In this document: in pieces, positions 1-62,589 of the stretch
Position numbering within the stretch: position 1 is the first letter of the stretch
Layout: each line of letters starts with the position of its first letter
DNA from: Octopus vulgaris
Lineage: Eukaryota
Reading direction: 5' to 3'
Assembly (NCBI GenBank): GCA_951406725.2
Contig: OX597826.1
Location: 17,856,001-17,920,000, forward strand
DNA: 64,000 bases
Position numbers and translations under genes: made by a program
Notes under the pieces: generated by a model
The model's input: only the letters and a program-made list of their open reading frames with translations
The model's database searches: none
Told to the model about the DNA's origin: nothing

Positions 1-345
1 TGAGCTTGTATTTCCCTCATGTTCACTGGTATGTAAATAATGTCATTGTCTTGCAGACTACTGCAAAAGGATGTAAACAAAAGGCTCCTTAAACAATATT
101 ACTTCCAGTTTCCTCCATAAATATGCTTGGGATTTTGTTAGACTGTGAGATTATTACCTCTCTTGGAAATCGGTGGGCTTTTAGCAACAGGATGAGTATC
201 TGGGCACAGAAAACCACTGCCTCAATGTTCTCTTGATCCATGCAAGCATGGAAAAGTGTACATTAAAGCAATGATGATGATGCTGAAAATTTTCTAAATC
301 AAAGGCTTAGTCTTGTCTGTAATGATTGAGCAGAAAATACCTTAA

Positions 346-567
346 CCCTTTAGTGTTCACATTATTCTGCCAAAATTAATGCTTTTTTATCCACATTGTT
401 TTGAACTAATCATGCATTATCTTGTAGCTAGGTGATTTTGATGAGGTCGCTGTTAATTTTTAAGATGATATTGTAGGGTTGGTGTGAGAGACCAGATATG
501 GCTAGTTTGAACATAAAACAGGTAGAATATTTTGGGCCGGATATGGCTGGTTTAAATGCTAAAGGGG
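346..567. mobile_element. piggyBac-like non-autonomous MITE (family A)
   Basis: TTAA target on both sides and CCCTTTAG...CTAAAGGG termini. The same internal sequence recurs at about 2545-2756, 22755-22974, 25870-26065 and 42230-42448. Confidence 0.75.
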
Positions 568-1357
568 TTAAAATGTATTTGTTTATTCAGTTGCTTATAG
601 TGCTTTATTTGTGGTCAGATTCTTGTGAAAATTAGTGATAGTGTGGGAGAAAAACTTTTGATGTAAGCTATCATTTGTGTTAAAAATAAGATGCATGTGT
701 GATTGTTCATTAATCTCATAATAATTAAAAATATTCACTAAAAATGATGATGGTGATTAATGCATTTAGTAATAGACATGGAAATACAAACAGCACAAAC
801 AAAATTTGTTTTTTCCTGAGGTTTAGTAGATTATTCATTATTGCACCTAAAGGTAAGCTGTAACTCTTATTGAAAGCAACATACCCAGGTATGCATGGAT
901 TTTATCATTTGTAGGAACAAAGTTGTTGGCTTCTGTTTATTCCACATATATAAATCACTTTTGTTGGGTGATAGTACTGTTGAAAACTCAATGGAAAGTC
1001 TAGAAAAAATATTCTACAAACTGTTTTATTTCTAGATCATCAGCACCTGTAAGGTGTTCAGGTAATATTTCATTGAAGTGCACTTGATATAAAAAAACAA
1101 AAAAATCAAACAAGTGAAGCATGACCATGCATGGGAAAAAAAAAAAATATATTGCTCTTGTCTGTCATTAATTCATTGATTAAACCATTGTCTAAGTTGT
1201 CTCTTGAAAATGATTAGAAGCTATTTTTTGAAAGCAAGTTTTGATTTAAAAAAAAGAAAAATGAAAAAGAACCCTTCCCCCCAATATGGTAAAATTTCAG
1301 TAATACTGAATTGATGTTCATAACTTACATTTGACGGATATTAGTCCTCATCTTGTT

Positions 1358-1404
1358 AACACAATGTTTCGGCTGATATACCCTCCAAGCCTTCATCAGG
1401 TGTC
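1358..1404 (-). ncRNA. minimal type-I hammerhead ribozyme motif in Penelope pLTR
   Basis: GACAC-CUGAUGA-A-GGCU...AGCC-GAAA-CAUU-GUGUU. Core boxes, stem II and stem I (ACAC/GUGU) are present. Stem III is degenerate. Confidence 0.7.
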
Positions 1405-1461
1405 TTGGAGAAATTTCAAACCTGGGTTCTCATTCCTAAGGTATTTTTCGATGTTGTTATT

Positions 1462-1520
1462 GCTGGAATTGAACTTGGAATCTTGGGGTTAGTAGCTCTT
1501 AACCACTACGCCATATGCCC
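1462..1520 (-). promoter_or_regulatory. tRNA-like Pol III promoter (A and B boxes) between the PLE ORF and the hammerhead
   Basis: A box TGGCGTAGTGG (1513-1503) and B box GTTCAATTCC (1474-1465), with tRNA-like CTACTAACCCCAAGATTCC between them. Confidence 0.6.
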
Positions 1521-2544
1521 ATGGGCAATTATGGAGTGAATTTTAGGGCTTATAAATCTAACATTTTCCTGTCCTTCCTTAATACCAATTCCCATATGCT
1601 ACTAGTGTTCTCTATTATTTTAACTTCATCCCACAGGGGAAGTTGGTCTCCATTTTCCCATACATGATCAGCTATACCCGATTTTTCAATATCTCGTTGT
1701 GTCACAGCTTTGCAATGTTCCTCTACCCTTCTTTTGAGGGGGTGGCATGTTTCGCCTTTGTATAACCTACCACAACTGCATGGGATGGAGTATACGCAGT
1801 GTTTGATCATGTTCTCTTCTATTGGTGGTTTTACTTGAAGGCGATATTTGCGAAGAGTTGTATTACTCTTGAACACTGTCCTGATGTCCTATGGGCCACG
1901 TATCTTTTATATCTTTCCAGAGAGGCCTTTCACATAGAGTAGGCAGACTATGGACAGTTTATTGGTTTCATCCCCTCTTTTCTTCATAATTGGAGTGGAG
2001 AGTATGTTTATTGGGGTAGTTGTTGCTTAACAGATTGTTATTGAGCTTAATCATTTCTTCGTGGTGGGTATCACGATCGCTACAAATATTCTTTGCACGA
2101 TGTTTTAGGCACTGAGCAATCCCTCTCTTTACACTCTATCGATGGTGGGAATTGAAGTTTAGGTATCTTCCAGTGAAGGTTGGCTTGCAGGAATGCCAGC
2201 TGATTGTCTTATTCCTTTTCCATTGTGAACTGTATGGATGGTTTTATTGAGTTCACATGATTTAACAGCACTTGGACATCTTCCTGGTGGGGTATCATAG
2301 CCATAGGGTTGGTTTTAGTGGTGTTGATCCTAAAGCCAAATTCTCAAAGTATTCCATATAAATCCTTACTACTTTCGATGGTACTCCTGTTTCATTATAT
2401 CTTCTTTTGCCCTATTGTATCCAATCTCCATTCACTCATATCTAGGAGCATTATAAAACACAATTGCATTGGCTTCTTGTATGCATCAGTGGGAATGCAA
2501 TAAGTGAAGGGAATGAAAAATGAGAATGTGTGGCTGTGAAGGAA

Positions 2545-2756
2545 CTTTTAGCATTTATATTACTCTATTAAATGTAATGCTTATTCATTCACAGTTTTGA
2601 ATTGATCTTACATTATCTTGTAACTTCGAGATTTTGGTGATTGATTATTTAGTCTTAGAATGACATTGTAGGGTAGGTGTGAGAGGCCAGATTCCGTCAG
2701 TTTGGATATAAAACAGGATATTTGTGCCAGATATGGTTGGTGTAAATGCAAAAGGG
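2545..2756. mobile_element. piggyBac-like MITE family A copy
   Basis: Similar to 346-567; ends AAAGGG-TTAA. Confidence 0.65.
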
Positions 2757-3039
2757 TTAAGGAAACTCACTAATCATGTCGTCCCCTTTAATAATCCAAT
2801 TCTCAACTTACTTTCATTATACCTATACTTGAGTTATCCCCCTTACTCCGTATTTATCACACCAACACAAGTTTTCTGTTATTCAATCAGATCATTTTTC
2901 TGTCCATCTTATTTGTTGTTTGCCCCCAGTTAAAATGGTTAGTAGTTCAAATGTTAACTAATTTTGGTTCTGGCTAACCAAATTGAATATGCTCTGTGTC
3001 CAATACTGAGTGCTTTTTGTTTGTTCATGAGCCAACATT

Positions 3040-4745
3040 ATTATTTAACGTCTGCTTTCAATGCTAAGCATGGGAAGGCTGCAGCAGGCGCCAATCCGAT
3101 CTGGCAAAGTTTCTACAGCTGGATGCCCGTCCTAAAGCCAACCACTCTGAGAGTGTAGTGGGTGCTTTTTACATGCCACAAGCATGAGGGCTAGTCAGGT
3201 GGTACTGGCATTGACCACACTTGAATGATGCTTTTTACGTGCCACTGGCACGGGAGCCAGTCAGGCGGCACTGGCAGTGACCACACTCAAATGGTGCTTT
3301 TTATGTGCCACAAGCATGGGGCCAGTCAGACAGCATTGGCATCGACCACACTCGAATGGTGCTTTTTACATGCCTCCAGCATGGGTGCCAATCAGGCAGT
3401 ACTGTCATCGGCCACAACGATTTCACTTGCCTCAACAGGTCTTTGCAAGTGCAGTTTATTGCCCAATAATTGAAGGGTGCTCTTAAATGGGCTGGTTATG
3501 CTGCACTGGCATAGGCCACGGTTACAGTCTCACTTAGCTTGCCAGGTCTTCTCAAGCACAGCTTATTTCCAAAGGTCTCAGTCACTTGTCTTTGCCTCAG
3601 TGAGGCCCACCGTTTGAAGGTCATGCTTCATCACTTCATCCCAGGTCTTCCTGGGTCTACCTCTTTCACAGGTTCTCTCTACTGCTAGGGTGTGACACTT
3701 TTTCACACAGCGTCCTCATCCATACACAACACATGACCATACCAGCACAGTCATCTCTCTTGCACACCACATCTGATGCTTATGTCCAACTTTTCTCTCA
3801 GGGTGCTTACACTCTATTGTGTATGCACACTGACATTACACATCCAGTGGAGCATACTAGCTTCATTCCTTGCAAGCTTACGCATGTCCTCAGCAGTCAC
3901 AGCCCATGTTTCACTGCCATGTAGCATGGCTGTTCGCTCACAAGCGTCATACAGTCTACCTTTTACTCTGAGTGAGAGGCCATTTGTCATCAGCAGGGGT
4001 AGGGGCTCTCTGAACTTTGCCCAGGTTATTCTTATTCTTTGCAGCTACACTCTCAGAGTATCCATCCCTGCTACTGACTTGGTCACCTAGGTAATGGAAG
4101 CTATCAACTACTTCTAGTTTTCCCCCCTCGAATGTGACGGAAGCTGTTTTCTGCACATTTTCACTATTTATTGCCCCTGAGCATCTGCCACACACAAAAA
4201 CTATCTTCCCAGGTAGCCTTCCTTTGATATTGCTGTACATCTTATGTGACCATAGCTTACACCAGGTTCATCTTATGGAGTTTCTACCTATGCCTTTTCT
4301 ACAGATTGAGCAGGGCCATCTACCTGAAGAGATTTGTGGTTTGTCTGCCTTCCTTCCTTATTAAGACTTTGGTTTTTGCTAAATTGACTCTAAGGCCCTT
4401 TGATTGTAATCCTTGCTTACACACCTGAAACGTCTCTAGTTCTGATAGTGATTCAGCTATTAGAGCAAGGTCATCAGCATAGAGAAGCTCCCAGAGGCAT
4501 CCTGTCTTGAATTCCTGTTATTACCTGGAGGATTATGATAAATAGGAGGGGGCTGAGGATTGATCCTTGGTGGACCCCTACCCCTACACAGAATTCTTCA
4601 CTGTACTCGTCAACCCTCACCTTACTGACAGTATCCCTGTACATGGCTTGTACAACTCTTACTAACCCCTCATCTATCCCTAGTTTCTGCATTGACCACC
4701 AGATAAGGGATTGGGGGACCCTGTCAAAGGCTTTCTCCAAGTCAA
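3040..4745 (-). mobile_element. RTE-clade LINE, 5'-truncated and decayed
   Basis: RT motifs DLEKAFDRVP, GVHQGSILSPLLF, LYADDL and VVDSFHYLG, plus a 3' UTR shared with the other RTE copies. Lies antisense in an NDUFA9 intron. Confidence 0.9.
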
Positions 4746-4863
4746 AGGTATATATTTAAATATTTATATTATTATGTAACACTGTTTACATGTTCTTTTA
4801 TACCATATTTCAGTATAAGAACTCTTGTTTATTTATTCAACACTCTTCTGAATTTTATTACAG

Positions 4864-4930
4864 AGCCAAAGTTTGGGTTTTCTCTTACATGCCCAGTTAC
4901 CCTCTTTTGAACTTTGAGAAGCTTGAGCGG
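4864..4930 (+). CDS. NDUFA9: NADH:ubiquinone oxidoreductase subunit A9 (39 kDa), penultimate coding exon
   Basis: Bounded by ttacAG| and |GTaag. Encodes (R)AKVWVFSYMPSYPLLNFEKLER and joins in phase 0 to the next exon, giving EKLER-EHITD. This matches the NDUFA9 'DKVER(M/E)H(I/V)TD' region. Confidence 0.85.
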
Positions 4931-5291
4931 GTAAGTTTGATATTTTCTTATTCAATTCCATCATTCTGGTGTTAGGCCTTTGTAGTCATCAAAACAGTTT
5001 CAAAGTAACTTCACTCGAATGAATACAGTTTAAATACAGTCCTAAAATAATTACATCATACAATCTACCTTTCATTCTTTACTAACAGATGTAGTAGTTC
5101 TCTGAACTTTGCCCAGCCTATTTTTATTCTAGTGATGTGAACTTATAATTCTTATGATAAGATGTTAATATTGTTTCATTAACTGTTGTTATGACTAGAT
5201 GTCTTTCATAAAAGAATGTTATATATTATATTGTTATGACAGTAGTTTTTGACTAAAAGCAAAATACTGAAAATATTGGTGTATTTTTTAG

Positions 5292-5465
5292 GAGCACATC
5301 ACAGATGTCATTACAGGCTGCCCCACATTAGAGGACCTTGGGGTGAAACTGACTCATATTGAAGAGCGAGCAGTGTTTGAACTGAAGCCTTTCCGAATGT
5401 ATTCTTACTACTATGACCAGATTGGTGAATTTAGTGAACCTCAGCCACCACCAATTGTAGCATAA
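5292..5465 (+). CDS. NDUFA9: NDUFA9 terminal coding exon
   Basis: tttttAG| acceptor. Encodes EHITDVITGCPTLEDLGVKLTHIEERAVFELKPFRMYSYYYDQIGEFSEPQPPPIVA*. The PTLEDLG..LT..E....EL.PFR...YY....GEF..P.PP pattern is the invertebrate NDUFA9 C-terminus. Confidence 0.92.
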   Translation, partial: EHITDVITGCPTLEDLGVKLTHIEERAVFELKPFRMYSYYYDQIGEFSEPQPPPIVA

Positions 5466-5532
5466 GGCAGCACAGTGCTAGCTTATATTCAGTTTGTGGA
5501 AAATTAGATAATTGGAAATTTCTTTATCTGTA

Positions 5533-5538
5533 AATAAA
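5533..5538 (+). terminator. polyadenylation signal of NDUFA9
   Basis: AATAAA about 68 nt after the stop codon, followed by T-rich sequence. Confidence 0.6.
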
Positions 5539-5750
5539 AAGGAAAATAACATTCTTTCGTAAGTTATTTCATTTTACAAATCTATTCTGTGCTGTTGTTG
5601 TTATTATTTAGCTCAGGTCAGCTTTGATCAGAGATTTATTCATTCAATACTGCACAGCTCTGACTTGCAAAAACATAAAAAGAGGATATTACTATAAGTC
5701 TCTTGTTGGCTCTCTACACAGTTGGCAACCAGTGAGTGATTAGATGCACT

Positions 5751-6208
5751 TGTAAAGGGAACTGGTTGCTTCTTTACACTTTTGGGGTGCAACTTGGGTG
5801 CAACACAATTTCCTTTCTTTTTGTTTCTAGAAACTACCAGTCGGTAACAAAAAGCAACTTTAAAAATATATACGATTCTTTGTTCTCTTATTCACAAATG
5901 AAGCACGATGGTAAACTGGTATCCACCTAGTTCAACACAGCAATTCAGCAGCAACAGAACAGGTCAAATCCTAAGCGTCTGGGACAGGAGAATAGGCTGA
6001 TCACATGTTTAAAAATACGTCCTTTCTCTACAATAGCCGTGTCTCAAGTCAACGACGCTATTAAGGAACGCGATAGAATTTCTTCCCCAGTCTCTAGCGC
6101 ATGTGCATGAGGGAACTTTCTTATGCCTTTCCAGAAGGTTCCAACCCCGCACACGCACACTGAAGAATGACGTTGCGTGTGCGCACACTGGAATATGATG
6201 TCACTACA
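5751..6208. mobile_element. solo LTR (probably Ty3/gypsy)
   Basis: 458 bp, begins TGTA and ends TACA. Flanked by an exact 4-bp TSD CACT (5747-5750 and 6209-6212). More CpG-rich than its flanks. Confidence 0.75.
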
Positions 6209-6598
6209 CACTTAATGAGCTGGATATTAAAGAATACTTGATTAACACAGGAGAACAATTCTGAACATAATTTCTGTTGAGTTTGCTTTTTCACTTGATT
6301 TAGACTAAAATTGACTGATTTGCTGGTTTCAAAACTACAGTCCGTTTTCTTCTATCAGGTCAAGTTTTTTGTTTCTGCAGCTTACTCGCTGAAGCACAAT
6401 TGTCTTGTTTGTCCATAGGTAATAGGGCTGGTACCACCAGTATGTAAAAAGCAGCCGGCACACTCTGTAAAGTGTTGGCATTAAGAAGAGCATCCAGCTG
6501 TTGAAATCCTGCCACAGCAGACAATTGGAGTCTGGACAGCTCCTGTCAAACTGTCCAACCCATGATAGCATGGAAAACAGACATTAAATGATGACGAA

Positions 6599-8025
6599 CA
6601 CTGGGGAACGTTTTGAAAACATTTTTAGTTGTGTTGCCTTTTTAAGATTAGTTCTACCTTATCAGGTGGTGCTGGTTTCAGAAATACCATCAGAAAGTTT
6701 CTATCACATCAAGTTTTTTGATAAACAAGAATTCATTTTTTACCAAAAAAATGTCAATTTTGCCACTAAATGCAAAACTGAAATTAAGAAACTAACAGAA
6801 ACCAAATAGTTCTTTTTATTGTTTAACATATATATTACACAAAATGTTTAGGAAATACAAAACCAATCCCAATGTCTTCTGCTATATTTGTGCAGCAAAA
6901 CAAAGTTACAAATTTTATGAAGAAAACTTATCTTTCTTACTTTGGCATAAAATTGGTTGACCAAGACAAAGCTTAGACACTCCATATATTGCACTTTTTC
7001 CTCACCAGGCAAAGCTAGAAATTTTCTGCTGAAGCATTTCAGACACTCACCATTCCAGTATTTCAACACATTAAAATGTGTTGAAACACTGGAATGGTGA
7101 GTGTCTGAAATGTTTAAGCAGAAAATTTCTAGCTTTGCCTGGTGAGGAAAAAGTGATGAGCAAAGAGAAAGATTTCACTAAGACATTGAAATCCTTGAGA
7201 TTAAGCATCAAGTTGGGTGGAATACAAACATGATGGCTGACTACTGGTGGACATTGGGGTTGTTTTTGTATTTTCTTCTCTTGCAACTGGACATATTTTT
7301 GAAATACAAGACATACCACGGGAAAAGTATTTTCAGAATTGTCAACAGTATTAAAGTAAGCAAATGTAGATTTGTGATGGCAAAGAGCATACATGCGATG
7401 AAGTTCTTTGACAATGCTTGACAAGAAGTAACCTTGACCTATGTGACCTCACATTAAGAGTGTATTCAAAATACTGATTCTCATACGAAATGGTTAAGGT
7501 TCAACAAAACATGTCTCACCCAGTAGTCACACTACATCAAGCACAGTGTGGGCATATCTGCAGACAGATGTCACAAATATGAGACATGATGCCAAGGACT
7601 ACAGAAATGTATTGTTTATTAACATCTAATCATATAAAGAACATTTCTGTAATGGTCATGGCATTTAAAACTGGTTAGATTGAAAATAGTGAAAGTTGCT
7701 TGAGTTTTATTTGCCTTTTATTTACTGAAGATACTTAAATCATGACTTTTGTTTTCACTTTTGTAGTTGCATTTGCTTTAAGTGATACTGAAAAGGTATG
7801 TTTTCAAAGTTATATTAAGATCCATACACGGGTCAGCATCTAATGAAACCAAATCTGTCCTTAGAAATGGTGACAATACTAGAAATGTTGGAAAATGGAC
7901 TTTTGAGTTTGTAAAAAATCTTCATGTGATAGAGCAAATTGGATTTCATTTTTGAAATCAGCACCTCAAAATTTAGTAGGAAACATGTCTCCAACACCGG
8001 ACAACAGAAACCTCGTTCCCCAGTG
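6599..8025 (+). mobile_element. Chapaev3 (CMC) internally deleted DNA transposon
   Basis: Perfect 12-bp TIR CACTGGGGAACG...CGTTCCCCAGTG. Internal remnant SDEQRERFH*DIEILEIKHQVGWNTNMMADYWWTL (about 7152-7256) is the Chapaev3 catalytic-E region. Confidence 0.8.
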
Positions 8026-8348: not shown

Positions 8349-9401
8349 CTAAGAATAGAGAAAATAGAAAATAATTTAGAAATTTAGACTTTTCCCAACA
8401 TTGAATAAAAGAAAACAATAAAATTAGTGAACGTTAATTGGGGTGAGAAAAATTTATAAGAAGAATACAAAAAATACTTGTCACGACCGGTCATTCTCAA
8501 TTAGTAACCAACCTTAATTTGAAATAAAATTATCTTTCCACAGATCCAAGTTTTCTACATTTGGCTATTTTGATCATGAAAAGTCTTTTTTTTTTCTTTG
8601 TAAACTGGTTCATTTCAACTTCTGAGGTTAGCAGAAATACAATTATCTTTTGTTTTTTACTTGTTTCAGTCTTTGGACTCCAACCATGTTGGGGCAACTT
8701 CTCAGAGGGTTTTAGTCAAATGAATCAAAGTTACAGAAACATAAACAAACCAACACTGGTTGTCAACCCTCACACACAACAGGCGTCTTTCAGTTTCTGT
8801 CCACTAAATCCACTCACAAAGCTTTGGTCACCTCAGGACTTTGCAGGAGAAACTTGCCCAAGGTACCATGAAGTGGGACTGAAACTGGAACCATGTGGTT
8901 GGGAAGCAGACTTTTTACCAATATCAATATTTTCATGCAGTTTTACGGAGCGTGTACAAATTATCATTCAACATTTTTGGTTTTTTTTAGAAAAACAAAG
9001 AATAGAAAACTCTTGTTAGCTTTTTGATGCTCCATGCATGAAATATTTTAACTTTAACTTTATGTAGAGTAGTTATACTTAACAATGAAGTACAAACTAT
9101 TAACAAACCATAAGATAAAGCTATTACACCAATAGGACAGGATTTAAAATTTATTTCTACTCAGCCCTATCTTTCTGGTGATTATATCAAAAGTTGCTTT
9201 CATTGCCACTGTTTTATATATTCACCCAAACATACTTTTTACATGTTACTTATTTCTTTTTAATGGATCTGATGATTTTCTTATTCAGCTGAAATTGCTA
9301 ATTGGTTTCGATCATTGGTCAGAGCTATTTTGCTTCTGTATCTAACTCCATAAAGAAAGCATACAAATTGCAGTTTTGCAGTTAATAATAATAATAATAA
9401 C

Positions 9402-10830
9402 CATCATCATCATCGTTTAAGGTCTGCTTTCCATGCTAGCATGGATTGGACGATTTTGACTGAGGGCTGGCAAACCAGATGGCTGCACCAGGCTTCAATC
9501 TTGATCTGGCAGTGTTTCTACAGCTGGATGCCCTTCCTAATGCCAACCACTCTGAGAGTGTAGTGGGTGCTTTTATGTGCCACCAGCACGGGGCCGGTCA
9601 GGCGGTACTGGCAACGACCTTGCTCGAATCTTTTACACATGCCACCGGCACAGGTGCCAGGAAGGCGATGCTGGTAAAGATCACACTCGAATGGTGCCTT
9701 TTATGTGCCACTAGCCGCTCTGTCAACGATCACACTCGTATGGTGCTCTTTGTACCCCGCTAGCACGAATGCCAGTCATCGAATTTGATTTTGATTTCAC
9801 TTGCCTCAACAGGTCTTCGCAAGCAGAGTTTTAGTGTTCCAAGAAGGTAAAGGTACGTATAAGTGGGCTGGTTACGCCCCTGGCATAGGCCACAAAGTTA
9901 TGGTCTCATTTGGCTTGCCGGGTCTTCTCAAGCACAGCATATTTCCAAAAGTCTCGGTCACTAGTCATTTCCTTGGTGAAGCCTAAAGTTCAAAGGTCGT
10001 GCTTCACCACTTCATCCCAGGTCTTCCTGGGTCTACCTCTTCCACAGGTTCCCTCAATTGCTAGGGTGTGGCACTTTTTCACACAGCTATCCTCATCCAT
10101 ACGCAACACGACCATACCAGCGCAGTCATCTCTCTTGCACACCACATCTGATGCTTCTTAGGTCCAACTTTTCTCTCAAGGCACTTACACTCTGTCGAGT
10201 ATGCACACTGACATTATACATCCATCGGATCATGCTGGCTTCATTCCTTGTGAGCTTACGCATGTCCTCAGCAGTCACAGCCCATGTTTCACTGCAATGT
10301 AGCATGGCTGTTCACACACATGCATCATACAGTCTACCTTTTACTCTGAGTGAGAGGCTATTTGTCACCAGCAGAGGTAAGAGGTCTCTGAACTTTGCCC
10401 AGGCTATTCTTATTCTAGCAGCTACACTTTCAGCACACCCACCCCAACTACTGACTTGGTCACCTAGGTAACGGAAGCTATCAACTACTTCTAGTTTTTC
10501 TCCCTGGAATGTGGGGGAAGTTGTTCTCTGCTCATTTTCAGTGTTTATTGCACCCGAGCATCCGCCACATACAAAAACTATCTTCCCAGTTAGCCTTCCT
10601 TTGATATTGCTGTACCTCCTATGTGTCCATAGCTTACACTGGGTACATCTTATAAGAGTTTCTACCAACGCCTTTTCTACAGATCAAACAGGGCCAACTA
10701 CCTGAAGGGATTTGTGGTTTGCCTGCCTTACTACTTATTAGGACTTTGGTTTTGGTTAGGTTGACTCTATGGCCCTTCGATTCTAATCCTTGTTTCCACA
10801 CTTGAAACTTCTCCTCTAGTTCTGATCGAT
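9402..10830 (-). mobile_element. RTE-clade LINE, 5'-truncated
   Basis: RT C-terminal half (VNLTKTKVL...VVDSFRYLGDQ...RIRIAWAKFRDLLPLL), 3' UTR and (ATG)n tail. Confidence 0.9.
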
Positions 10831-23887: not shown

Positions 23888-24290
23888 ATAGGCATAGGCA
23901 TGGCTGTGTGGTAAGAAGTTTGCTTTCCAACCACATGGTTCCTGGTTCACTCCCATTGCATGGCACCTTGGGCAAGTGTCTTCTACTATAGCCTTGCGTC
24001 AACCAAAGCCTTCTGTATGGATTTGGTAGACAGAAACTGAAAGCAACCTGTAATGTGTGTGTTTGTGTGTTTGTTTCTGTGTTTATCTCCCACCACTGCT
24101 TCACAGCCAATGTTGGTGTGTTTATGTCCTTGAAACTTAGCAGTTCAGCAAAAGAGACTGATAGAATAAGTACCAGGTTTAAAAAGAAAAATAGGTACTG
24201 GGGTTGATTAGCTTGACTAAAATTCCTCAAAGTGGTGCCCCAGCATGGCCACAGTCTAATGACTGAAGTAAAAGATAAAAGATAAAGATG
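23888..24290 (+). mobile_element. tRNA-derived SINE family 1 (internal CA/TA microsatellite)
   Basis: A box TGGCTGTGTGG, B box GGTTCACTCCC, CCTTGGGCAAGTG core and (AAAAGAT/AAAAGAGT)n tail. Other copies at about 8650-8920(-), 10925-11155(-), 26838-27883(+, split), 33790-33972(-), 41085-41477(-), 49500-49770(-), 56580-57055(+), 59480-59885(+), 59893-60292(-) and 61952-62358(-). Confidence 0.85.
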
Positions 24291-25048: not shown

Positions 25049-25087
<39 letters not shown>

Positions 25088-25860
25088 GTTTAACGTCCGC
25101 TTTCCATGCTAGCATGGGTTGGACGGTTCAACTGGGGTCTGGCAAGCCCGAAGGCTGCACCAGGCCAGTCAGATCTGGCAGTGTTTCTACAGCTGGATGC
25201 CCTTCCTAACGCCAACTACTCCGAGAGTGTAGTGGGTGATTTTATGTGCCACCGACACAGGTGCCAGACGAGGCTGGCAGACGGCCATGCTCGGATGGTG
25301 TATTTTATGTGCCACCGACACAGGTGCCAGACGAGGCTGGCGAACGGCCACGCTCGGATGGTGTTTGTTACATGCCCTCAGCACGGAGGCCAGTCGATGC
25401 GGTACTGGCTACGGTCATGTTCGGATGGTTTTCTTATGTGCCACCGGCACTGGTACCACAAGGATACAAATTCCATTGATGTTCATCTATTTTGATTTGG
25501 TTTGATTTGATTTGATTTGATTTGATTTTCACTTGCCTCAACAGGTCTTCACAAGTGTCACAAGAGGAAGGTATGCACAGGTGGACTGACTACGTCCCAG
25601 GTAGGGGCCACGGGTTATGGATTCACTAGTCTTGCCAGGTCTTCTCACACACAGCATACTTCCATAGGTCTCGGTCTCTAGTCATTTCCATGGTGAGACC
25701 TAACGTCCGAAGGTCGTGCTTCACCACCTCGTCCCAGGTTTTCCTGGGTCTACCTCTTCCACGGGTTCCCTCAACTGTTAGGGATTGGCACTTTCTCACA
25801 CACCTATCTTCATCCATTCTCACCACATGACCATACCAGCGCAATCGTCTCTCTTGCACA
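25049..25860 (-). mobile_element. RTE LINE 3' end
   Basis: ORF end QERRLRWYGHVVRMDEDR...GRGRPRKTW, 3' UTR with internal tandem units, and a long (ATG)n tail. Confidence 0.9.
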
Positions 25861-27004
25861 CGTGTTATTTAACCTTTTAGCATTCAGATTTCTCTATCAA
25901 ATGTAATGCTTATTTATTCACATTGTTTTGAATTAATCATGCATTATCTCATACCTTTAAGATTTCAATGATGTGATTGTTTATTTTGAGAATGACATTG
26001 ATGGGTAGCTGTGAGAGGTGAGGTCTGGCCAGTTTGATCATAAAACAGTCAGAATATTTGGGTTAGCACTGTATGCTAGGAGATACTATCACCTGATGAA
26101 TACAGCAGTTAATTTTTTTTTTTTTTGTGATGTGACTGCATTAAGTATGATTATACAGAGGCAATTTAATACATATTTTATAAACACTGAAAGGAAAAAA
26201 AGATGAAGTTAACACTGTCAAGATTTAAACTCAGAGCATTAAAAAATGAAACTAAAAGCTATGAAGTCAATTAGTCCCACACTCCATTCTATCTTTTCAT
26301 CTGTCACCTTTCTTACTTAAATGTTGATTTTTTATGACAACACATTGTCAGTATTTGTAGATTTCAGTAAAACAGTGTATTATTGGAACTTGTCTTATCA
26401 TCAAGTATAGCTAGCATTATTTTATTCCTTTACTAGTTCCAACTGTTTAATTGGTATATAATATAGATTCATATCAATATATGTTAGCAATATAATTTCC
26501 CAAAACCAGAAGAACAAAAAACAGGCAAGATTTGAACCATTAACTAATATTGTTATAATATTGATTTCAAATTTTGGCGTGAGGCCAGTAATTTTAGGGC
26601 AGTGGGTAAGTCAATTACATTGAACCCAGCACTCAACTGGTACTTATTTTATCAACCCCAAAATAATGAAAGGCAAAGCTGACAGTGGCAGAATTTGAAC
26701 TCAAAACATGAAGATGGACAAAATACTGCTAAGCATTTTAGCCAGTGTGCTAAGGATTCTGGCAGCTCATTGCTTTAAGATTGTAATAATATTGATTGTT
26801 ATCAATTAATTAAGTATCTATTACGAGAGTTCAAATTTAGGCGTGGGAGTGACTGTGTGGTAAGTAGCTTGCTTGTGAACCACACGGTTTTAGGTTTAGT
26901 CCCACTGCATGGCACCTTGGGCAAGTGTCTTCTACTATAGCCTTGGGCCGACCAAAGCCTTGTGAGTGGATTTGGTAGATGGAAACTGAAAGAAGCCTGT
27001 CATA

Positions 27005-27055
<51 letters not shown>

Positions 27056-27185
27056 ATGTGTGAGTGTATATGTTTGCGTGTCTGTGTTTGTACCCCCAAC
27101 ATCGCTTGACAACTGATGCTGGTGTGTTTACGTCCCCGTAACTTAGCAGTTCAGCAAAAGAGACTGATAGAATAAGTACTAGGCT

Positions 27186-27809
27186 GCCAACAAAGCATGC
27201 CGAGTTCTGTTCTTGATTCGACGGTCATTCGGAATGCTCACAGCAGCCATATTTCTACCGCTCTATATCACGCTGGTGAGACCCATATTGGAGTACGGGA
27301 TTCAAGCCTCTTCTCCTTATCTCCTCAACGACACACAGCATCTAGAAAGAGTCCAGAAGCTGGCTACCCGCATGGTTCTTGGTCTCAAGAATTCATCTTA
27401 TGAAGAAAGGCTGAAGACACTCGACCGTTATTCTCTAGAAAAACGACGACGCCGTGGTGATCTCATCCTTGCTCACAACATCATAAGCGGAAAGTGTAAC
27501 CTCTCGAAAGAGCTGTTCTTCACTCCTGCTCCAGAGCGTCGGCTGCGGGGTCATTCCGAAAAGCTCTATCTGCGACGATTTCATCTCAATCGAAGGAGAG
27601 GGGCTTTCTCCGTCCGGCTTGCGGATCCGTGGAATAAGCTGCTGGACGAGATGGTGAAGATGCCGACGACCGCTTGGTTCAAAGTCTCCCTTGACCACAA
27701 GTGGCCTGAACTCTTTACCTGAACACAACCCTGTACATAACTCCATGTCCCCCTACATGGCCTTGCTTTTTGCTTTTTGAGCCAAAGAATTAACTAACTA
27801 ACTAACTAA
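27186..27809 (+). mobile_element. CR1-group LINE 3' fragment inserted in a SINE
   Basis: Open frame LYITLVRPILEYG...LERVQKLATR...YEERLKTL...SLEKRRRRGDLI...LRGHSEKL and a (TAAC)n tail. Confidence 0.9.
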
Positions 27810-40419: not shown

Positions 40420-40698
40420 AACTGGCACTCCATTGGTTACGACAACGAGGGTCCCAGTTAATCTGATCAATGGAACAGCCTGCTCATGAAATTAACATGC
40501 AAGTGGCTATGCACTCCACAGACATGTGTACCCTCAATGTAGTTCTCAAGGAGATTCAGCATGACACAGGTATTTCTCATTTTTGCTGGCTGAGAGGACT
40601 GAAGCAACATGAAATAAAGTGTCTTGCTCAAGGACATAAAACATCACTGGGAATTGAACTCACGGTCTTATGATCATAACCACTGAGCCACACACCAT
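40420..40698 (-). mobile_element. tRNA-derived SINE family 3
   Basis: On the - strand, TGGCTCAGTGG A box, GTTCAATTCCC B box and CCTTGAGCAAGACACTTT core. Confidence 0.6.
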
Positions 40699-42229
40699 CA
40701 CACACAACAACCAGCCTTCCTTTATATCCTAAACAATCATCACAAATATGCACACATCTCTTAACAAGCCAACTACAACAACAATAATTCTGGTTTAAGC
40801 AACCCATGTAAGCCCTCATAATTTTTCTATCTTTTGAAATTTTCAGAAATTTTTTGTGAATTTGTGTTCTACGTCGATATATCAGCAGCTAACACATAAC
40901 TTTGTATTTAAAAAAAATTTTTCAAATTTGCTGTAGACAAAGATAACTACGAAGATTTTATAAGTGTTTCTAGAATATTTATATTAAACCAATAGATAAG
41001 ATTTTCATACGGCATCAACTTAGAACACACAAGTCACAGTCAAGAAAATCCATTCATCAATTTATAAAAGTCTTAAATCTCTCTCTCTTTTTCTCTTTTA
41101 CTTGTTTCAGTCATTTGATTGTGGCCATGCTGGAGCACTGCCTTTAGTCGAAGAAATCGACCCCACAACTTATTCGTTGTAAGCCTAGTACTTATTCTAT
41201 CGGTATCTTTTGCTGAACCACTAAGTTACGGGAACATAAACACACCAGCATCAGTTGTCAAGTGATGTTGGGGGGACAAACACAGACACACAAACATATA
41301 CACACACATACATATATAGATATACATATATATGACGGGCTTCTTTCAGTTTCTGTCTACCAAATCCACTTACAAGACTTTGGTCAGCCCGAGGCTATAG
41401 TAGAAGATGCCACGCAGTGGGACTGAACCCAGAACTATGTGGTTGGTAAGCAAGCTACTTACCACACAGCCACTCTGGATAAAAAAAAAAAGTGCCTTCA
41501 GTATATGAAGCAAATAATCAATAATGGATACTTTTACTTCAAGAATCCTGTCATCAGGTACAAGGCTCCAATGACTTGAAAATAAAACTGGTCAAGGACA
41601 CAGCAATATTACAAGCAAGAATAATGGACTTAACTCAAAAGAACTCAACTACTTAAAACCATGATATTTCAGTAAATGTTATGATTATTACAAAACAGGA
41701 TATCAAACAAGAAATTAATCCACGAGCTGTCTCTCAAAAGCTCATAAGTGTTTTCCATTTTCTGAGGAATAGATTGACATGGTTGCAGAGGATGTACAGC
41801 AAGATGTCATGTCAGAAGATAAAAAAAAACAAAAACAATTTTACTAAGGTGTGCAAATCAAGAAATAAGCTCATCTCTCTTGCATTAACTGTTTCAGCAT
41901 TACTGAGCTGATATCACAAAGTAGAATCATTTAGAGAGTGATTCATTCCAGAAGTTGATATTCCATTAAGCTTTACAGTTACACAAATGACAGTTATATA
42001 TGGTTATGCATAGTCTTTGCTTAGATGTAACACTTTGTCAGAGTTCCATGCCTCATCATTCTTTAACTGGATTTAAATTTAATGGACATTGACAGATTTT
42101 TTTCTTGCTTAAAGAGCCAGTCTGTAACATCACACCATGCTCTAGTTTAATAGAGAATGCCAAACTTATCACTTCCCCAATTCAGATGAAAAGTAGTAGA
42201 AAATATAATCTGAGGCACTTTAACATTAA

Positions 42230-51454: not shown

Positions 51455-52385
51455 ATGTCCAAACCACAAATCCCTTCAGGGAGATGACCCTGCTCAGTAT
51501 GCAGAGAAGGTGTGTGTAGAAATTTCCTAAGGTGTACTGTGCAAGCTATGGACACACAAGAGGTACAGCAGAACCAAAGGAAGGTTATCTCAGAAAGTCT
51601 TTTTGTGTGTGGCAGATGCGGAGATACAATAAACACTAGGAATGTACAGAAAATAAAACTTTGCCCTCAAGGATACTTAGAAGTAGTAGCTAGCGACCAG
51701 GTCAGCAGTAGAGGAAGATGCTCTGAGAGCACAGCTGCTAGGATAACACTGAACTGGGCAAAGTTCAGGGAGCTGTTACCTTTGTTGGTTACAAAGGGCC
51801 TCTTCCTCAGAGGGAAAAACAGATTGTATGATCCTTGTATGTAAACAGCCATGCTACATGGCAGTGAAACATGGACTGTGACTGCAGAGGACATGCAAAG
51901 GCTTGAAAGAAAAGAAGCCAGCCTGCTCCATTGGGTGTGCAATGCCAGTGTGCATGGATGACAGAGTGTAAGTGTCTTAAGAGAAAAACTGGGAATAAGA
52001 AGCTTTAGACATAATGTGCAAGAGAGAAGACTGCACTGGTATGGTCATGTGATGTGTATGGATGAGGATGGCTTCATAAAGAAGTGCTGATCTCTAGTGG
52101 AGGGAACATGTGGAAGAGGCAGACCCAGGAAGATGTTGGACGAGATGGTAAAATATGATCTTCAGCTATTGAGTCTCACAGAGGCAAAGACAAGTGATCA
52201 AGAGTTCTGGTGATTTGTTGTGCTTGAGATGACGTGTCCAGCTAAGGGAAACTGTGGTCGTGGCCAGTGCCAGGGACACATGAAAAGCACCTGTTCCAGT
52301 GACACACAAAAGGCATCTGTGCCAGTGACGTGTAAAAGGCACCCATGCCGGTGACATGTAAAAGGCATCTGTGCTGGTGACTTGC
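51455..52385 (+). mobile_element. RTE-clade LINE fragment
   Basis: SKPQIPSGR*PCSVCREG...FVCGRCG...WAKFRELLPLL...RLHWYGHV. Confidence 0.85.
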
Positions 52386-56341: not shown

Positions 56342-57059
56342 CATGTGTGTGTATGTGTGTGTGTGTGTACACACACAGATCTGTAATATATAATATATGA
56401 ATTTACATTTATACTCTGAATCAACATATTCTTACAGAATGAAATAAAATTGGTGCAGGTATTGTTGTTGTAGTTTAGCTTCAGATCAACCTTGATCAAG
56501 CATACATTAGAGGAAGACATTCCAACCATGATCATCCTGACTTACTTTTTTCTAAGATTTTAATTTGAATGTAGTGAATAGGAAAAGGCATGCCTGTGTG
56601 GTAAGAAGTTTGCTTCACAACCACATGGTTTCAGGTTCAGTCCCACTGTATGGCACCTTGGACAGGTGTCTTCTACTATAGCCTCAGGCCAACGAAAACC
56701 TTGTGAGACAATTTGATAAATGGAAACTGAAAGAAGTTCACCATGTGTGTGTGTGTGCACGCATGCATGTGTGTGTGTGTGAGTGTGTGTGTGAGAGAGA
56801 GCGTGTGTGTAAGTGTATATGTGACTTTGTATCTTTTTTTGTCCCCTACCACTGCTGGACAACTGGTGTTGCTGTGTTTACATTCCAGTAACTTAGTGGT
56901 TCAGCAAAAAAGACTGACAGAATAAGTACCCAACTTAAAAACAAAAAAAAGTACTGGGGTTGATTTGTTCAAAAATAATTCTTTGAGGCCATACTCCAGC
57001 ATGGCCACAGTCTAATGACTGAAACAAGTAAAAGAAAAACAGGAAAAGATAAAAGATCT

Positions 57060-59328: not shown

Positions 59329-59481
<153 letters not shown>

Positions 59482-59645
59482 GGTGCAGAGAGGTTGTGTG
59501 GTAAATATCTTGCTTACTAACCACATGGTTCCGGGTTCAGTCGCATTGCATGGCACCTTGGGCAAGTGTCTTCTAATATAGCCCTAGGCCAACCAAAGGC
59601 TTGTGAGTGGATTTAATAGATGGAAACTGAAAAAAGCCTATTGTG

Positions 59646-59677
<32 letters not shown>

Positions 59678-60312
59678 CATGCCTGTGCTTGTCCCCCCCA
59701 CCCATGCTTGACAACTGATGTTGGTGTGTTTACATCCCCATAACTTAGCAGTTTGGCAAAAGAGACCCAAAGAATAAATACTGGGCTTACAAAGAATAAG
59801 TCCCAGGGTTGATTTCTTCGACTAAAGGCAGTGCTCCAGCATGGCAGCAGTCAAATGACTGAAACAAATAAAAGAATAAAAGAATATATATACTCTTTTT
59901 TTTACTCTTTTTACTTGTTTCAGTCATTTGACTGCGGCCATGCTGGAGCACCGCCTTTAATCGAGCAAATCGACCCCAGGACTTATTCTTTGTAAGCCCA
60001 GTACTTATTCTATCAGTCTCTTTTGCCGAACCGCTAAGTGATGGGGACGTAAACACACCAGCATCGGTTGTCAAACAATGCTTGGGGGACAAACACAGAT
60101 ACACACACATATATATATATACATATATACGACGGGCTTCTTTCAGTTTCCGTCTACCAAATCCACTCACAAGGCATTGGTTGGCCCGGGGCTATAGCAG
60201 AAGACACTTGCCCAAGATGCCACGCAGTGGGACTGAACCCAGAACCATGTGGTTGGCTAGCAAGCTACTTACCACAGCCACTCCTGCGCCTAAATATATA
60301 TATATTATTTAA

Positions 60313-61904: not shown

Positions 61905-61954
<50 letters not shown>

Positions 61955-62589
61955 TCTTTACTCTTTACTCTTTTACTTGTTTCAGTCATTTGACTGCGGC
62001 CATGCTGGAGCACCGCCTTTAGTTGAGCAAATCGACCCCGGGACTTATTCTTTGTAAGCCTAGTACTTATTCTATCGGTCTCTTTTGCCGAACCGCTAAG
62101 TGACGGAGACGTAAACACACCAGCACCAGTTGTCAAACAATGCTAGGGGGACAAACACAGACACACAAACACACACATATATATACATATATACGACGGG
62201 CTTCTTTCAGTTTCCGTCTACCAAATCCACTCACAAGGCTTTGGTCGGCCCGAGGCTATAGTAGAAGACACTTGCCCAAGACGCCACGCAGTGGGACTGA
62301 ACCTGGAACCATGTGGTTGGTAAGCAAGCTACTTACCACACAGCCACTCCTGCGCCTATATATATATGTATAGAGTGTTTGACAATGGAAATGGATGGAT
62401 GGATGGATAGATGGATAGATGGATGGATGAATGGGTGGGTGGCTATTTAGGTAGGTAGTCCGACGGATAGACAGATAGTTAGAGGGAGAGAGAGAGAAGG
62501 GGTATCCCCACTTCCTATTCATTTATTTATTTATTTAGTCCATTGCAATGGAATGGGTTTAAGGATGGTGACCTCTTCAAAAAAAAATA

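Follow-up and report, generated by a model that had tools for sequence, protein, structure and literature searches.

Autonomous retrotransposons are generally taken to be transcribed by Pol II, R2 being co-transcribed with the rDNA. Promoters derived from small RNAs are regarded as restricted to short, non-coding passenger elements. Among Penelope-like elements (PLEs), Penelope of Drosophila virilis has a 75-bp intron and carries a TATA-less, LINE-like promoter and its start within the pseudo-LTR (pLTR), so that each copy's 3′ UTR is also the 5′ UTR of the following one (Schostak et al. 2008, PMC2377424), and Poseidon of Anolis carolinensis (PAc; Frangieh et al. 2024, PMC11167929) has two internal start sites for reverse transcription. 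For the TRIMp3 elements it has been argued that autonomous partners must use Pol II, and Penelope does not appear in the main text of that paper (Kojima 2024, PMC10886601). We describe an octopus locus, analysed within a window of 64,000 nucleotides, whose best explanation, which we hold to be somewhat more probable than its competitors taken together, is the pLTR of an autonomous Penelope/Poseidon element in which a tRNA-Arg-derived head is a likely internal Pol III promoter, with RNA starting six bases before the tRNA 5′ end. In a protein-making element this would be an unusual arrangement.

The copy in the window lies on the minus strand at 1308..2385 and, as judged by family alignment, comprises RT thumb, GIY-YIG endonuclease and pLTR sequences; it is truncated at its 5′ end near 2385 and internally deleted. 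It is identical to the family majority at 1024 of 1105 aligned bases (92.7%) and has several deletions, including a net 84-nt in-frame loss from the open C-terminal frame with its GIY-YIG motif (CVYSIPCSCGRLYKGET; 1550..1888, from the ORF list and family comparison), which closes with the family stop codon TAA at 1552-1550. Further along this strand, 1526 is the G that we call G(-6), the predicted transcription start according to junctions and copy ends, 13 nt before the A box. The tRNA-Arg(ACG)-derived head, recognised by tRNA comparison and profile, runs from 1520 (1462..1520), with the A box TGGCGTAGTGG at 1503..1513 and the B box GTTCAATTCC, decayed at a CpG, at 1465..1474, both placed by sequence and family alignment. 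The head is 74 nt long in the family; here it has a 6-nt deletion and has lost its 3′ end. Then come a remnant of an (AAT/AAC)n tract (1451..1461), the length of which is highly variable among aligned copies, and the ATG (1431..1433) with which the 835-aa ORF of the next unit begins (MRTQVRNFPKTPDEG...), assigned from the family ORF and from homology to the protein P0005. A putative second B-box-like stretch occupies codons 3-7 of this ORF (1413..1425).

Within the coding region, motif and family alignment identify a minimal type I hammerhead (1358..1404), in which the 5′ strand of stem I (1404-1400) is followed by the core CTGATGA (1399-1393), an extra A and stem II, and then by GAAA (1370-1367) and the 3′ strand of stem I (1362-1358); the predicted cut lies between 1363 and 1362. 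The remaining stretch, 1308..1357, is the 3′ end of the insertion, which in the alignment of copy ends falls at the proximal one of the family's two end clusters and which we infer to be the reverse-transcription start, about 122-129 nt into the ORF. A preliminary description had placed the ORF stop, the tRNA-like segment, both boxes and the hammerhead at these positions on the minus strand, and all of them are there. It had also attributed the short A-B distance of 28 nt to a loss, and this proved correct: the distance is 34 nt in the family majority, and the 6-nt deletion spans the junction of the D-stem 3′ and anticodon-stem 5′ strands. CpG-type changes have altered the B box (TTCGA to TTCAA) and stem III (ACGU to ACAU), and because of these the copy is probably a dead element. 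A motif scan found one hammerhead motif only, and one A/B-plus-hammerhead pair only, in the 64 kb; 60 dinucleotide shuffles gave 0 hammerheads and 0.05 A/B pairs per window.

Other repeats were seen in the window. At 3074-4755 on the minus strand is a decayed LINE (RT match, E 1.7e-9) with a repetitive 3′ tail, which we take to be RTE-like, and its relatives occupy 9385-10826, 25058-25861 and 51460-52273. Two copies of a short inverted-end (MITE-like) element, present at other loci as well, lie at 341-568 and 2547-2760, and a near-perfect palindrome of about 110 nt at 7019-7128, probably a MITE, attracts spurious matches to miRNA families. A repeat of about 400 nt has many copies, several of them forming inverted pairs and giving weak tRNA-profile matches (23888-24288, 26835-27194, 41081-41477, 56578-57042, 59466-60305 and 61945-62372).

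A 261-nt query returned 4,194 candidates from the 2.8-Gb genome, 40 of which were scored. Exact occurrences numbered 2,166 for a 33-nt hammerhead core and 693 for a 36-nt tRNA-like core, with 0 for the reversed control of each, and 2,213 for a motif of the 3′ part. The family majority unit, derived from 19 and 30 long copies, is 2,662 nt long and has a single 835-aa ORF with RT and GIY-YIG. The RVT_1 domain was detected with E 5e-10, and GIY-YIG, which had no Pfam match in the release searched, was recognised by motif. Homologs of the ORF are PLE-type proteins, the closest being P0001-P0006 (52-67% identity), and include Anolis P0042 (37% identity over 805 aa); domain order and this identity point to Penelope/Poseidon as the probable assignment, the Anolis protein being the one named clade reference in a homolog tree that held no Neptune, Nematis or Naiad sequences. 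When the Anolis protein was used to search the genome, all 30 fetched matches belonged to this same family.

The order of the unit can be read directly from the copies: the stop codon is followed by a 21-nt spacer, a short leader, the 74-nt head, (AAT)n, the ATG, the hammerhead, situated 30-70 nt inside the coding frame, and the tail. In copies that hold the ORF N-terminus the pLTR runs directly into the ORF, and the tail-to-ORF junction is present in 119 copies. Because pLTR, ATG and hammerhead-coding ORF follow one another in this order, the tRNA-like head is the 5′ end, or 5′ UTR, of the next unit and not a 3′ add-on. The earlier view of it as a 3′-terminal feature has to be reversed, and the hammerhead lies inside the ORF. 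The peptide encoded by the hammerhead (TPDDG...PKRCV) is also found in P0005, whose homology to the N-terminus of the ORF begins at residue 11; this was one protein out of 120, many of which are N-terminally incomplete. Two of 93 tail-to-ORF copies (L389 and L390) extend upstream into the ORF end, which constitutes a partial tandem of the pLTR. The 3′ ends of 76 copies form two clusters about 30 nt apart, at unit positions 255-262 and 287-294; by analogy with the Anolis element, these would be the traces left in the genome by a pair of internal start sites for reverse transcription. An optional tail of 30-40 bp is characteristic of Penelope/Poseidon elements, and the two clusters agree with it. 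Inverted 5′-truncated neighbours are frequent, head-to-head copies being common.

The head was compared with 73 host tRNA genes of 11 isoacceptor types, Ile and Asn not among them. The best match among these types was Arg-ACG (52 of 77 columns, collinear from base 1, z 8.5), in agreement with the tRNA-Arg-like identity first proposed. tRNA-Ile was also considered as the source of the head; two patterns for tRNA-Ile genes found none. A profile of 8 host tRNAs gave E 6e-8 on the family unit and E 0.033 on the window copy. ARAGORN reported no tRNA in the window and none on the family majority down to threshold 80, and Rfam recognised neither tRNA nor hammerhead in window positions 1-8000 or in 8 copies; head and ribozyme are therefore identified by motif and by comparison within the family. 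The family head does not fold into a cloverleaf, and its boxes are kept while the stems have decayed, as in SINE heads.

The head is a family feature and not a SINE insertion peculiar to one copy, since all 30 tRNA-anchored copies examined run on into the family (AAT)n tract. The hammerhead region follows in 26 of these 30 (two partly, two after >800 nt), and 4 of the 30 reach upstream toward the ORF. At 80 control Penelope loci, none of 20 hammerhead motifs had A/B boxes within 300 nt upstream. Conservation among copies was 0.957 and 0.965 for the A and B boxes versus 0.949 for the rest of the head; this is no excess and fits neutral decay, and it consequently lends no support to a promoter. 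In the family majority, the second B-box-like stretch in codons 3-7 matches the T arm of host tRNA-Arg(ACG) exactly over 11 nt, a closer match than that of the head's own B box; it may represent an earlier duplication or an additional TFIIIC site. The tRNA-like matches at control loci L290, L312 and L340 were rejected as unrelated; they lie in flanks upstream of truncated ORFs that have their own T-runs. Elsewhere in the genome, a tandem array of tRNA-Arg(ACG/TCG) genes with a spacing of about 206 nt was noted at G000:C2:211887000-211907200 (L371). Another tRNA-like A/B unit in the window, at 40645-40691 on the minus strand (profile E 1e-4), is probably a decayed SINE head unrelated to the family.

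The start of the RNA was sought in the ends of the copies, which were sampled as 76 hammerhead-anchored copies at 70 loci, taken from contig C1 in positional order with three regions chosen for double matches. Of these, 34 reach head position +8, and 23 of the 34 end between -8 and +8, the remaining 11 continuing upstream toward or into the ORF. The 5′-end hazard at the head is 0.07 per nt versus 0.001-0.007 elsewhere (P 3e-15 to 2e-9). Tail-anchored copies, at loci partly shared with the hammerhead-anchored sample, end at the head in 5 of 11 cases, and so do 4 of 6 copies that continue into the 5′ part of the ORF (from 93 copies). The agreement of these two samples argues that long and short templates share a 5′ end; the samples are small and come mostly from one contig. 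Same-orientation template-jump junctions, in which a 5′ piece of the ORF is joined to the head (two ORF-end copies with small deletions were excluded), fall at G(-6) in 8 of 10 cases and at C(-5) in 2, 9 of the 10 being independent. None of the 10 has an extra G or any upstream sequence past -7. G(-6) is preceded by T and is located 13 nt upstream of the A box, and a start about 13 nt before the A box is the usual geometry of type 2 Pol III genes. The TATA-like TTTATAAG at window positions 1550-1556 on the minus strand, made up of the last ORF codons and the stop, lies about 25-30 nt upstream of the start and is supplied in tandem arrangements only. Compound insertions, consisting of a piece that ends 180-420 nt into the ORF and a pLTR that starts at the RNA 5′ end, were frequent, which suggests frequent template jumps once the RNA 5′ end is reached; their joints often hold 1-6 extra A's (L215, L385, L426, L431, L433, L443 and others).

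The sense strand of the unit is poor in Pol III terminators. T4 and TVTTT are the shortest of these (PMC8466645); the 2,662-nt unit has no T4 run against 4.8 expected from composition, and one T4 or TVTTT motif against 12.3 expected from 48 T-matched controls. G4 runs are absent as well. The absence of T4 has P=0.024 by shuffling the unit's own codons, 0.002 by a neutral third-position model, 0.087 and 0.22 by Markov models of order 1 and 2, and about 0.02 empirically against the spread of control Penelope ORFs. TT is itself depleted (O/E 0.79, matched by 2 of 80 controls), and once this is allowed for the absence is only moderately significant, suggestive without being proof. The 80 control Penelope ORFs, from 58 families, have a T4 O/E of 1.49; two of them are without T4, as is none of the 38 that measure at least 1,600 nt. 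Nearly T4-free controls are L284 (1 in 2,346 nt) and L295 (none in 1,419 nt, and no TVTTT either). Fragments of other LINEs from the same genome, a small control of two sets of 7-9 fragments, gave O/E values of 1.0-1.7; non-family Penelope controls from this genome were not found among the 30 matches fetched with the Anolis protein, nor in viral contigs. Thirty aged copies of the family contain 0.52 T4 per kb, compared with 0.51 in the simulated decay of a T4-free parent. The one terminator-like motif is a TCTTT located 230 nt into the ORF and retained in 63 of 76 copies; in mammalian cells roughly half of Pol III transcripts terminate at TCTTT (PMC8466645). Jump junctions at the TCTTT are weakly enriched (6 versus 2.5 expected, P=0.04), and a neighbouring interval has 8; we rejected the motif as a mapped RNA 3′ end on account of this weak and nonspecific enrichment.

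In the family majority both the A and the B box are intact, and so is the hammerhead core with the palindromic ACGU. Core and palindrome are kept together in 47 of 141 copies. In the window copy the change to ACAU has destroyed the stem III palindrome, and the predicted energy of the dimer helix rises from -3.5 to +2.8 kcal/mol; this variant is predicted to be inactive. The minimum-energy fold of a single hammerhead region differs from the ribozyme fold, and the hammerhead would cut only as a dimer; activity of the family ribozyme is itself predicted from its motif. Short self-cleaved RNAs had been envisaged in the preliminary description. Of the two samples examined for 5′ ends at the cut site, one had 9 among 51 copies (P=0.024) and the other 1 among 30, together 10 against 6.1 expected (combined P=0.09), at most a weak enrichment. 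The hammerhead is probably unnecessary for insertion. RNA-seq from an organism coded B (three raw-read runs and one contig set) was compared with locus L193. Depth was about 400-2,000 on the pLTR versus 0-19 per direction on the ORF, it was equal in both mate directions, there were no common starts or ends, and 87-89% of the reads that aligned continued into unrelated sequence. The signal is read-through of embedded copies, and these data are therefore uninformative on the polymerase.

The scheme that we prefer would proceed as follows. The RNA would have the order head, (AAT)n, ATG, hammerhead, ORF and next pLTR, with a Pol III-type internal promoter in the head setting its start at G(-6). 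The element protein would begin reverse transcription inside the ORF, at two points about 125 and 155 nt from its start. Starting on the first (5′) pLTR, it would generate the abundant 'solo' copies of 260-290 nt that stop at the RNA 5′ end, and starting on the second pLTR it would generate copies that carry ORF sequence, the window copy among them; once at the RNA 5′ end, it would often jump or invert. The original proposal that a promoter has been built into the pLTR holds insofar as the head is family-wide and copies begin there, and its use by Pol III is a prediction from sequence. More tentatively, and with clearly less confidence than in this outline, we suggest that the captured tRNA-Arg promoter drives an uncapped RNA of about 3 kb through an ORF purged of terminators except for the one half-efficient TCTTT, giving both a short template and an mRNA translated without a cap. 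Against the preferred scheme, an uncapped Pol III RNA of this length would need to be translated, the hammerhead would cut downstream of the ATG, and TTTATAAG near -30 fits Pol II too.

The last of these points also speaks for a Pol II element with a fossil SINE head, in which the tRNA sequence was captured, Pol II makes the RNA as in other Penelope elements from a start that happens to coincide with the head, and T-runs are scarce through base composition; we regard this as improbable, though the most probable of the alternatives. Drosophila Penelope offers the precedent of an internal TATA-less, LINE-like pLTR promoter (PMC2377424), translation would be unproblematic, and the TT depletion is equalled in 2 of 80 controls. 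However, a Pol II start would have to fall by coincidence within 6 nt of the tRNA 5′ end and 13 nt before the A box, and the single terminator-like motif where 12.3 are expected would have to be accounted for. The jump junctions, which are without an extra G, also argue against capped templates. An extra G is left by capped RNAs in the case of L1, and to our knowledge it is not known for Penelope. A term search of the accessible text of PMC4381410 returned no mention of a cap-derived extra G. The same copy ends and junctions that support the preferred scheme would equally suit a division of labour, which we consider unlikely, with Pol III making the template RNAs (short and possibly long ones) and the protein coming from Pol II transcripts that either read through from host transcription or start at this very position. 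This would sidestep the translation of an uncapped RNA, and the lone TCTTT, half-efficient as a terminator (PMC8466645), could yield the short template, of about 365 nt. Yet junctions are enriched only weakly at this motif, and the scarcity of terminators spans the whole ORF, suggesting full-length passage of Pol III.

The short copies bear on a further possibility, an extension of the preliminary description, that the tRNA-headed units are a self-propagating SINE or retrozyme family which the Penelope mobilises and which produces self-cleaved or circular RNAs. At the head there are about two short copies for every ORF-linked one, both boxes survive in 23 of 76 solo copies, and there are precedents in SM-alpha (PMC6765202) and in animal retrozymes (PMC7229834; bioRxiv 10.64898/2026.07.22.740005). 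Nevertheless, the 76 solo copies group with the 60 ORF-linked copies in a single star phylogeny, with mean distances of 0.099 and 0.119 within the groups and 0.109, which is their mean, between them. No supported solo-only clade was found among these copies and no position was diagnostic; two of many had p<0.05, both being transitions commoner in ORF-linked copies, and one common non-CpG head variant is shared by the two groups. Copies are single or head-to-head, head-to-tail arrangements being rare (direct repeats at L079, L146 and L384). Short copies end at the Penelope tail and are without the ORF stretch downstream of the reverse-transcription starts, which Anolis Poseidon needs as template (PMC11167929). 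Instead of constituting a SINE family, the short copies are probably dead ends, and we give the self-propagating family very little credence. We give still less to a purely mechanical origin of the 5′-end pile-up, by fold-back of a palindrome or an RNase P-like cut of a tRNA mimic with no promoter role. A TGCCC-NN-GGGCA palindrome with 5-bp arms does span -7 to +5, blurring inverted junctions, and palindromic inversions make up 19 of 149 head junctions. But non-palindromic and same-orientation junctions end there too, with 3-6 leader bases upstream of G1 that favour a start site over an RNase P cut, and the head has no cloverleaf fold.

If the preferred scheme, with Pol III starting at the head, is correct, the element would provide a natural long coding Pol III transcript and raise the question of cap-independent translation. 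Even with Pol II, the copies in the genome locate the start of a PLE RNA at single-nucleotide resolution. They would also account for thousands of tRNA-headed repeats that look like SINEs, as by-products of reverse transcription begun internally, a point that matters for repeat annotation.

A tRNA-headed Penelope was not found in the literature searched; Repbase, Dfam, SINEBase and Ohshima and Okada 1994 were outside the scope of the search and may already contain the family or its short copies. Its ribozyme is an ordinary member of the minimal type I hammerheads (PMC4209133), with which it shares the extra base between 9 and 10.1, the G10.1-C11.1 pair and the palindromic 15.2-16.2. Poseidon of Anolis (PMC11167929) resembles the octopus unit in its single RT+GIY-YIG ORF, a hammerhead overlapping the ORF start, two end points about 30 nt apart, partial tandems and inverted 5′ copies; the accessible part of that paper mentions no tRNA head or Pol III promoter, whereas the octopus unit has the head and few terminators. 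Like Penelope of D. virilis (PMC2377424), the octopus family appears to have promoter and start inside the pLTR, but its start falls together with A/B boxes, and its 5′ UTR, of about 130 nt, shows no evident intron. The schistosome SM-alpha and Sj-alpha repeats (PMC6765202, PMC2770079) likewise have a tRNA-derived Pol III-type promoter followed by a hammerhead; they are non-coding tandem repeats, whereas the octopus hammerhead lies in a coding frame and the short copies have no lineage of their own. Animal non-LTR retrozymes (PMC7229834; bioRxiv 10.64898/2026.07.22.740005) are also short hammerhead repeats related to the pLTRs of PLEs, but they are defined by head-to-tail arrays and circular RNAs, and the octopus copies are arranged otherwise. 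Finally, Cassandra, Helenus and Ajax of the TRIMp3 group (PMC10886601) carry a small-RNA-derived Pol III promoter in the terminal repeat. These are short non-autonomous LTR elements; in contrast, the octopus head belongs to an autonomous, ORF-bearing PLE.
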